Below are positions 14,518 to 15,484 of a DNA stretch of 64,000 nt, one piece after another. The notes under the pieces are model-generated. The model worked only from the letters and a program-made list of their open reading frames with translations, searched no databases and was not told where the DNA came from. This DNA is from an uncultured Chlamydiae bacterium. GTDB taxonomy: Bacteria > Chlamydiota > Chlamydiia > Chlamydiales > JAJFMA01. Location: positions 128,001 to 192,000 of the forward strand of contig CAVQMM010000001.1 in NCBI GenBank assembly GCA_963713615.1, read 5' to 3'. Made by a program: the position numbers and the translations under genes. Positions within the stretch are counted from its first letter, which is position 1. Each line of letters starts with the position of its first letter.

Positions 14518-15484
14518 ATGGACAATATGGACTTAATGGACCTCATGAGGTAATTTCAGAAGTATTTGGGCTCTCATGAATCGATTCTTTGGAAAAAAAA
14601 TCACTTTTTTTTGTGAGAAGGCGATTCTGGAGAGCTTAAGTGGTATGGCACTATCCAGTCTGGAAAGACAGGCTTTTCTCCTTTCCCAGGCCCGAAGGGT
14701 CGATATTGCAACAGGCCATGGCATATGCCAGGAAGGGATTTCGCAGTCTGAAGGACTGCTACAAGACGCCAGTTTACAAACACCATTTATGCATGCGCTT
14801 TATGGCAGCCCTACAGGCTGCTAAAACCGTTTTGGCATATACCATGGCGATGCCACATAGGCCTCAACCTAAGCCTAACAATCGTATCTCGGCGCGCAGC
14901 GCTTTGGAGTGCGGTCGCTTGCGACCGCTTTGGGTTCCTTGCGACGGTCGTGTGCAACGGCATTACTATAATTCCCTAAGGGTAAAATAGTTAGTACATG
15001 CAGCCTTCGACGAATCCATACAATGCCGTTTAGCATTGCCGTCCCAAGGAACGAAAAGCGGTCGCAAGCGACCGCACTCCAAAGCGCTGCGCGCCGAGAT
15101 ACGATTGTGAAGTCCTAAGTCCTTGAGATATAAGCTCAAAAGACCTGTTAGGTTGAGGCCTATGTGGCGATGCCATGGCCTGTTGCAATATCGACCCTTC
15201 GGGCCTGGGAAGGGAATGACTCTCTCTTCACCGGCATCCGATTTTCAGGAAATTGGCCTTGTTCGGCTTTCCGGGCAGAATTTCGGTCAGGCGAGAGGTC
15301 CCAGATGCAGCAGTCGACGACGAGGGAATAGCGCTAGCTATTGCCGAGGAGGCGAATGCTGCAGATGGGCGCCTCGCAGCCGACCGAAAACTGCGCGAAA
15401 AGTCGAACAAGGCCAGGAAATTGACTTCGGAAAATCGGACTTTTGCAATTACCTCATATTGTCCATGAGGTCCATTAAGTCCAT
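14518..15484. repeat. About 1-kb cluster of concentric inverted repeats (nested REPIN-like elements)
   Basis: IR pairs 14518-14544/15458-15484, 14545-14563/15439-15457, 14683-14724/15170-15211, 14852-14872/15148-15168, 14878-14931/15055-15108. Confidence 0.92.
15255..15414. mobile_element. 160-bp MITE, subfamily B2, inserted into a family C repeat
   Basis: GGCCTTGTTC / GAACAAGGCC ends; AGGAAATT duplicated at 15247-15254 and 15415-15422; empty site at 5970-6027. Confidence 0.95.

Follow-up and report, generated by a model that had tools for sequence, protein, structure and literature searches.

The interiors of MITEs, most of which fold as long rods, are usually taken to be decayed filler. 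Bacterial families such as Correia/NEMIS, ERIC, RUP, Nezha, Chunjie, QMITE2 and bcr1 are described, in the available text of two accounts (PMC10969869, PMC3184786), as short, non-coding elements with terminal repeats shared with insertion sequences (IS), target duplications and predicted stem-loops, and bcr1 with compensatory changes in addition. The repeat analysed here resembles them in these features. However, as far as such descriptions go, each known bacterial MITE family has an interior of its own, whereas the interior reported here is common to several end types and phyla; it is also unlike the described families in that specific loops are kept and orientation follows replication. The IS982-derived MITECca01 demonstrates that IS982 elements give rise to MITEs (PMC9769881, available text). 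IS982 elements themselves are described as about 1.1–1.2 kb long, with 5′ AC ends and one transposase, which agrees with the autonomous carriers found here, and the accessible part of that description mentions no sub-terminal hairpins (PMC7335449). Three chlamydial members, in contrast, have a 100-nt module inside each end. Hairpins of IS200/IS605 and REP/RAYT elements are read by HUH transposases, and these elements are not known to make a target duplication. Their strand-specific hairpins near the ends and their link to the lagging-strand template, as given in the literature parts available, are shared with the present elements, which differ in having terminal inverted repeats and family-specific duplications and in sharing one module between transposase families. 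As terminal inverted repeats and target duplication are both present, identity with IS200/IS605 or REP hairpins was rejected. A shared interior module is absent from the accessible text of PMC10969869, PMC11602168, PMC5896051, PMC3971601, PMC3184786, PMC7335449, PMC12708500 and PMC9769881, and we found no published description of it in literature that left aside most subscription journals and supplements. We conclude that it is a real and widespread structured module in an ordinary class of elements, apparently undescribed.

The locus lies within a stretch of 64,000 nt (the window) from an uncultured Chlamydiae bacterium, probably an environmental member of the phylum, with a genome of 3.97 Mb (G000). 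Features are listed below in positions of the window.

15255–15414, plus strand: B2 MITE, 160 nt, G.A loops on the plus strand; the source genome has 13 B2 copies in all
15247–15254, no strand: left 8-bp target-site duplication of B2
15415–15422, no strand: right 8-bp target-site duplication of B2
15255–15274, plus strand: left terminal inverted repeat of B2, matching the end of the DUF6399 IS at G000:C1:1074398-1076015
15395–15414, minus strand: right terminal inverted repeat of B2, 20/20 identical to the right end of the IS at G000:C1:1074398-1076015
15283–15388, plus strand: conserved structured module of B2, a rod of ~100 nt (covariance models R1 and R2)
15293–15294, plus strand: GA side of the outer GA/GCA loop of B2, partner 15376–15378
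15304–15305, plus strand: GA side of the middle tandem GA/GA loop of B2, partner 15364–15365
15319–15323, plus strand: GACGA, 5′ side of the near-invariant core loop of B2, two tandem G.A around one C-G pair
15324–15345, plus strand: apical hairpin of B2, nine pairs and a variable loop
15346–15350, plus strand: GAGGA, 3′ side of the core loop of B2
2148–2307, minus strand: B1 copy, nested within a core-less B1 remnant at 2119–2342
36966–37125, minus strand: B1 copy with 8-bp duplication
45926–46085, minus strand: B1 copy with 8-bp duplication
57925–58084, minus strand: B1 copy with 8-bp duplication
63206–63362, plus strand: B3 copy, 157 nt, with IS66-type ends and 8-bp duplication
14509–15493, no strand: larger, unrelated multi-copy repeat that hosts the B2 insertion; 92 empty-site matches in the chromosome

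The 33-nt core pattern occurs six times in the window without a mismatch (0 in 100 shuffles), at 2211, 37029, 45989 and 57988 on the minus strand in B1, at 15319 on the plus strand in B2 and at 63270 on the plus strand in B3. The strands are those given by an earlier sequence-only reading of the window, and every arm pair that it listed as differing yet complementary is found in the sequence. Its strand assignment does not extend beyond the window: the 133 core matches in the whole genome at up to six mismatches (117 B1, 13 B2 and 3 B3) lie on both strands (63 plus, 70 minus). Eighty B1 and ten B2 copies are identical, nearly all copies measure 157–162 nt, and none has a transposase gene. Perfect 8-bp target duplications flank 111 of the 133 copies, with 7, 9 and 10 bp in 1, 1 and 0 cases, and the empty B2 site, with 168 nt skipped, is present in public DNA and RNA contigs. 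By every testable feature, i.e., short length, shared terminal repeats, target duplication and dispersed copies, the element is a MITE. Ten core-less B1 remnants of 44–67 nt, all different, and one 139-nt deletion copy were also found in the chromosome; a relaxed descriptor scan of the same genome yielded no further family. The repeat that hosts B2 (14509–15493) is very abundant and nested, with probes giving 81–190 chromosomal copies, and contains layers of inverted repeats, e.g., 14679–14724/15170–15215 and 14878–14964/15022–15108. Multi-copy repeats make up about 10% of the chromosome overall (984 segments, 382 kb).

The ends of these elements lead to different insertion sequences. Those of B1 match, over at least the first 16 nt at each end, a 1883-bp IS that is flanked by an 8-bp duplication and encodes a DUF6399 protein of 559 aa; those of B2 match a second DUF6399 IS (20/20 at one end); and those of B3 agree in 21 of the first 23–24 nt with a broken IS66 element, of which an ORF scores above the PF03050 cut-off. 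From the identity of the ends we infer mobilization in trans by the cognate transposases. IS1595 was discarded as the partner of B1 and B2, PF12762 having no match in the genome and the actual partners being DUF6399 elements. These two IS (G000:C1:1035800-1037682 and 1074398-1076015; L034 and L457) have GGCC ends, the first with an 8-bp duplication, and may form an unclassified IS family, since their DUF6399 proteins match no NCBIfam transposase model. DDE chemistry of the DUF6399 protein is suggested by the anatomy of the element; a single-sequence fold was unusable (pLDDT 44.6).

Neither of the two DUF6399 partners nor the IS66 partner in the source genome gives a module score with the covariance model, and none of the DUF6399 IS tested carries the module (21 loci in seven genomes). 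For the interiors of B1–B3, derivation from the parent IS by deletion is not supported; a MITE of another genome (G003) matches the end of an IS982 element, and either of the two may have given rise to the other. Judged from sequence comparison, the interior moves independently of the ends, because the cores of B1 and B3, with unrelated ends, are 94% identical and those of B1 and B2, with the same end type, 88%, and because two end types with a near-identical apex occur in one genome (G002). At least five end types have been found around the module, i.e., GGCC, GTA and GGCTA, each with an 8-bp duplication, AC with one of about 5 bp and CTAG/TTAA with one of 4 bp, a count obtained with an automatic end finder that was unsuccessful on many rows. 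Across the module-bearing elements, duplication length and end sequence track the IS family.

B2 folds as a single unbranched rod (−107.7 kcal/mol, z −12.6), and none of 200 shuffles folded as well. The conserved core proposed for the three subfamilies is real, and it exceeds the arms in conservation (B1 versus B2, 88% in the core and 53% and 60% in the arms; B1 versus B3, 94% against 29% over the first 28 nt), including for B3 with its unrelated terminal repeats and near-equal length (157 versus 160 nt); however, the conserved unit of ~100 nt is larger than the 33-nt centre. Covariation, claimed from three subfamilies, holds in larger alignments. Of 35 pairs defined from a MAFFT alignment of 17 elements, 23 have double-sided changes, and 92.6% of cells pair, as opposed to 27–46% with slid partners; double-sided changes were seen in 35/35 pairs in a model-fitted alignment of 46 rows (two of them reverse-strand) and in 34/35 among 30 rows not used in model building. 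When 92 rows were collapsed to 57 clusters at <75% identity (46% on average), conservation was 93–100% at the eight G/A positions of the core loop, 88–96% in apical ATAG/CTAT and mostly 30–60% in the lower stems, and mismatches on the G.A strand were more often G.T than A.C (132:38) and more often purine-purine than pyrimidine-pyrimidine (120:17); these figures are upper bounds, because loops of this kind raised the score in the model or pattern by which the rows were found. On one strand only, the purine loops GACGA/GAGGA, GA/GA and GA/GCA are fixed; the stems covary freely, and several families have G-C instead of C-G as the central pair of the core loop, within an unchanged G.A frame. Selection on a single-strand fold with purine-rich loops, as the sequence-only reading had proposed, is supported by this pattern.

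Among inserted B1 copies, seven changes fall at 17 loop sites and 22 at 87 other interior sites; loop changes are as frequent as elsewhere, which indicates that resident copies are free of loop-specific constraint. Arm-to-arm conversions are seen among B1 copies, one of them erasing the GA/GCA loop, so stem covariation may be mutational in part, and the loops persist against conversion. Tandem G.A pairs are stable in DNA and in RNA, and together with the enrichment in G.U/G.T pairs they fit RNA equally well; the RNA energy gap between the two strands is 14–19 kcal/mol. Apex loops proved uninformative as a discriminator, favouring neither RNA nor DNA motifs (5 and 5 of 105). Rfam yielded nothing relevant at either gathering or E-value thresholds: the window has no match at the former, and six loci gave only weak miRNA-type hairpin scores far below threshold. 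Among metatranscriptome contigs, one runs across a B1 copy whose flanks differ, and for B2 a 42-nt core piece is the sole coverage; as such contigs show no ends, strand or level, they are neutral on a role as RNA.

A search for the core in other phyla, which had been proposed as a check, was positive when performed with covariance models. R1 has matches in 42 of 149 genomes of the source's order and in 37 of 149 genomes of a phylum sample, which is made up of one order, but in none of 26 genomes of a small-genome family (1.0–1.2 Mb), and a named Parachlamydiaceae record also bears the module. With R2, matches were obtained in 21 Acidobacteriota and 3 Pseudomonadota, out of 150 genomes each. 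Scanning species genomes for the pattern returned at least 123 stretches, many of which fold and score as the module and some of which are chance matches; among the stretches listed, those that fold and score come from records labelled Acidobacteriota, Gemmatimonadota, Myxococcota, delta- and gammaproteobacteria, Acidimicrobiales, Bacteroidetes and Patescibacteria, with constant geometry across phyla. Viral contigs gave a single pattern match that does not fold as the module and no IS982 relative, BLAST of B2 against plasmids gave only short chance-level matches, and R2 found no match in E. coli K-12, a weak negative as the first pass produced no candidates. No recurrent flanking gene was detected among 68 flanking proteins scanned (99 extracted). 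Small Patescibacteria genomes also bear the module (L396:4220-4322 in G234, and L145); in G234 it is single-copy, between ftsX and a CAP-domain-like gene. In G303 (L274, L277, L282), a variant has a changed core loop and the end YTAR-CCCG on one side, with no clear terminal repeat on the other, and other long purine-loop rods beside IS982 loci (L420:2394-2521 and L440:3370-3488), which score weakly at 23–26 bits, are possible members of a wider family.

Several classical repeats have related features. E. coli copies of ERIC (IRU) are likewise rods with one-strand tandem GA/GA loops, one of them directly under the apical hairpin, and ERIC looks built by a similar grammar. It differs in its TA-type ends, its length of about 127 nt and its core. 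Identity with ERIC was rejected: R2 is not significant (E above 3), and TA ends, a ~127-nt length and the ERIC core are absent here. Our own count of ERIC orientation in E. coli K-12, which presumes the positions of origin and terminus, is 7:5. RPE1-like elements share GCA/GA loops under the apex (L295, L329, L330); we take L329 and L330 to be RPE1 by their motif, and L295 is so labelled by a below-cutoff TIGR01045 match, the sole one over 301 Pseudomonadota. Correia has similar short motifs but a branched fold. By model score the RPE1-like loci and the Correia copies likewise differ from the module, the best R2 score among them being 13 bits (E 0.59).

The sequence-only reading held that ordinary MITE transposition can do without the fold. 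The presence of the module inside both ends of three autonomous IS982 elements weakens that view and suggests that it may serve transposition itself. In G003, an intact IS982 (NF033520 above cut-off) has a module inside each end, with the G.A strand pointing inward. Among 30 IS982 loci, one per genome and drawn from 60 positive genomes among 300, two inward modules are present in three (G003, G762 and G775), all chlamydial, and absent from 27; a metagenome contig contains the right end of a fourth module-bearing IS982. The module-bearing elements have the NF033520 transposase, AC ends and length of about 1–1.2 kb of the IS982 family, and of 15 aligned transposases, those of G762 and G775 most resemble the G003 enzyme (41% versus 19–36%). 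Five plasmid IS982 relatives examined out of 27 lack the module. Since most IS982 elements and all DUF6399 IS tested do without it, the module is not required for transposition in general. The left module stops 65–75 nt upstream of the start codon, and a promoter scan of one IS982 was at chance level. Left and right modules within one element differ in sequence while their loops are kept. A 156-nt MITE in G003 corresponds to the first 136 nt of the IS right end (three differences) followed by an inverted copy of the tip, and G058 and Acidobacteriota have MITEs with two modules that likewise point inward.

Orientation of the module is tied to replication. In the source genome, the G.A strand lies on the C-rich strand, i.e., the leading-strand template, in 94 of 129 chromosomal copies (p 2e-7). 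Among 30 repeat-family probes of this genome strong bias was confined to B1, two others reaching p 0.016, and the large repeat families are unbiased (41/81, 43/94, 76/137 and 94/190). A joint model of 107 sites gives z −4.2 for replichore and −0.7 and −1.0 for the directions of the left and right genes; where neighbouring genes run in tandem, the G.A strand is antisense in 25 and sense in 12 cases. The suggestion of an RNA-processing or protein-binding motif is not supported by these data: orientation tracks replication and not genes, and B1 loops mutate as other sites do (7 changes at 17 sites versus 22 at 87). Of 98 hits at the best-listed loci of six other genomes of the phylum, 25 were excluded for unclear skew and another 14 as modules belonging to seven double elements; of the remaining 59, 46 have the same polarity by local skew. 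An acidobacterium (G230) has it in 56 of 80, with one hit dropped and contig signs taken from three or four windows, some of them weak, whereas another acidobacterium (G536) is opposite, with 2 of 8 single-type hits and two more unclear. Orientation counts leave out G616 and G646, which have weak or patchy skew and two-module elements. In G058, single modules are split 11:2 and double elements 3:4 (Fisher p 0.12). Identical young B1 copies (58/77) and diverged copies (36/52) are equally biased, an outcome expected from bias at insertion and from rapid loss alike.

On the G.A strand, target duplications are rich in A whichever way the element lies (73 A>T and 21 T>A of 107), and this holds in any replichore at the B1 and B2 sites of the source genome and at sites in G079. 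Target preference was rejected as the cause of the replichore bias, as it predicts only 52%. In the available text of PMC3971601, most IS families named here are biased in few or no chromosomes, and some transposases bind the sliding clamp; the replichore bias could be set at insertion by such contact between transposase and clamp. It could also be a passive, hairpin-driven loss without benefit. Hairpins form readily on the exposed lagging-strand template (PMC12708500, available text), and this hairpin-prone strand corresponds to the depleted orientation of the G.A strand. A search for the SbcC Walker-B motif had no match in the source genome (0/1, controls 12/14), so long palindromes may be tolerated there and any loss of one orientation would more likely be due to slippage or transposition than to SbcCD cutting.

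We tentatively favour, with a probability of roughly 0.45, the explanation that the interior is a portable one-strand hairpin module, probably acting as ssDNA at the replication fork, that would aid transposition in cis whatever the transposase. It is favoured because of the strand-specific fold, the position near the ends of autonomous IS on both strands, the gene-less carriers, the unconstrained resident copies and the replication polarity. The loops would form sheared G.A pairs, and the rod would stay stable on one strand but be weak on its complement. Copies whose G.A strand serves as lagging-strand template would fold at a higher rate and, equally, leave or be excised at a higher rate; their loss would produce a roughly 70–78% excess of the other orientation, and two-module elements would work in either. 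Recognition would be by a host factor, or by the replication fork as such, rather than by the transposase. New families could arise by fold-back copying that places an inverted copy of an IS tip beyond the far side of the module, whereby the module could acquire the ends of whichever IS is active, and selection would act at the founding of a new burst and not on each resident copy. The opposite polarity in G536, the A-rich duplications and the antisense lean of 25:12, which hints at an effect of transcription, weigh against this explanation.

A role as RNA, the main alternative, appears rather unlikely, although several observations suit it. Transcripts coming in from the flank would fold into the G.A rod, and a host protein would bind, cut or stall them; this would shield the transposase gene from read-through and antisense RNA and make an insertion less costly, with the replichore bias as a by-product of hairpin instability. 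The inward G.A strand at both ends of IS982 is the first met by an incoming transcript, the left module ends 65–75 nt before the start codon, the energy gap between strands is large (14–19 kcal/mol) with frequent G.U-type pairs, tandem contexts lean antisense (25:12), and Correia and ERIC transcripts are substrates of RNase III and RNase E (PMC10969869, available text). However, the link to gene direction is not significant once replichore is included, gene-less MITEs keep the module across families with no transposase to insulate, resident copies lack loop-specific constraint, and no neighbour gene is constant among the 68 flanking proteins. It is improbable that the rod has no active function at all, being one old, horizontally spread hairpin in which template switching makes the stem covariation and purine loops render a long palindrome tolerable at the least cost, the weak pyrimidine strand blocking cruciforms. 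The B1 conversions, the missing SbcC match and the core-less 44–67-nt remnants agree with such passivity. Template switching would, however, erase the loops, whose bases are instead the best conserved positions of an alignment with 46% mean identity; moreover, the central pair flips with the G.A frame kept, the two modules of an IS982 differ with loops kept, and the ten short remnants are all different, against 80 identical full B1 copies. Least probable, and very much so, is a catalytic or templating nucleic acid (a ribozyme, a reverse-transcribed RNA or an ssDNA priming signal) with its own route of spread and borrowed IS ends. Replication-linked polarity is known for retroelements that use fork primers, and the constant geometry across phyla would also be in keeping; but duplication length and ends follow the IS family as expected for DDE transposition, there is no Rfam match and, among the 68 flanking proteins, no linked gene, and the rod is simple and unbranched.

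Here the MITE interior is the conserved part and the ends are the exchangeable part. If a hairpin at the fork aids transposition, IS biology would include a cis-acting, transposase-independent layer, and MITEs would have a route of birth other than internal deletion; if the module acts as RNA, a widespread structured RNA would be missing from Rfam. The two-module IS982 is autonomous, and the effect of changed loops or orientation on transposition could be measured in it directly. A broader version of the favoured explanation seems doubtful to us, namely that a phylum-spanning single-strand hairpin might be a universal transposition enhancer, read by a fork factor, placed inside both ends of some IS and founding MITEs on any DDE transposase ends by fold-back, with ERIC- and RPE-like repeats as distant versions.

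The window contains further features of note. A multi-hairpin repeat family of 400–540 nt occurs at 134–524, 11214–11755 and 49035–49427, scoring at most 16.8 bits with R1 and having no G.A core. On the minus strand, a 977-aa protein at 42840–45773 has a below-cutoff match to the SidJ polyglutamylase family (E 7e-21), and a 1891-aa RHS/YD-repeat protein is encoded at 30590–36265. An Rpn-family nuclease/putative transposase gene (46145–47104, minus strand) ends 60 nt from a B1 copy, and a similar Rpn-family neighbour occurs once in G079 (L044).
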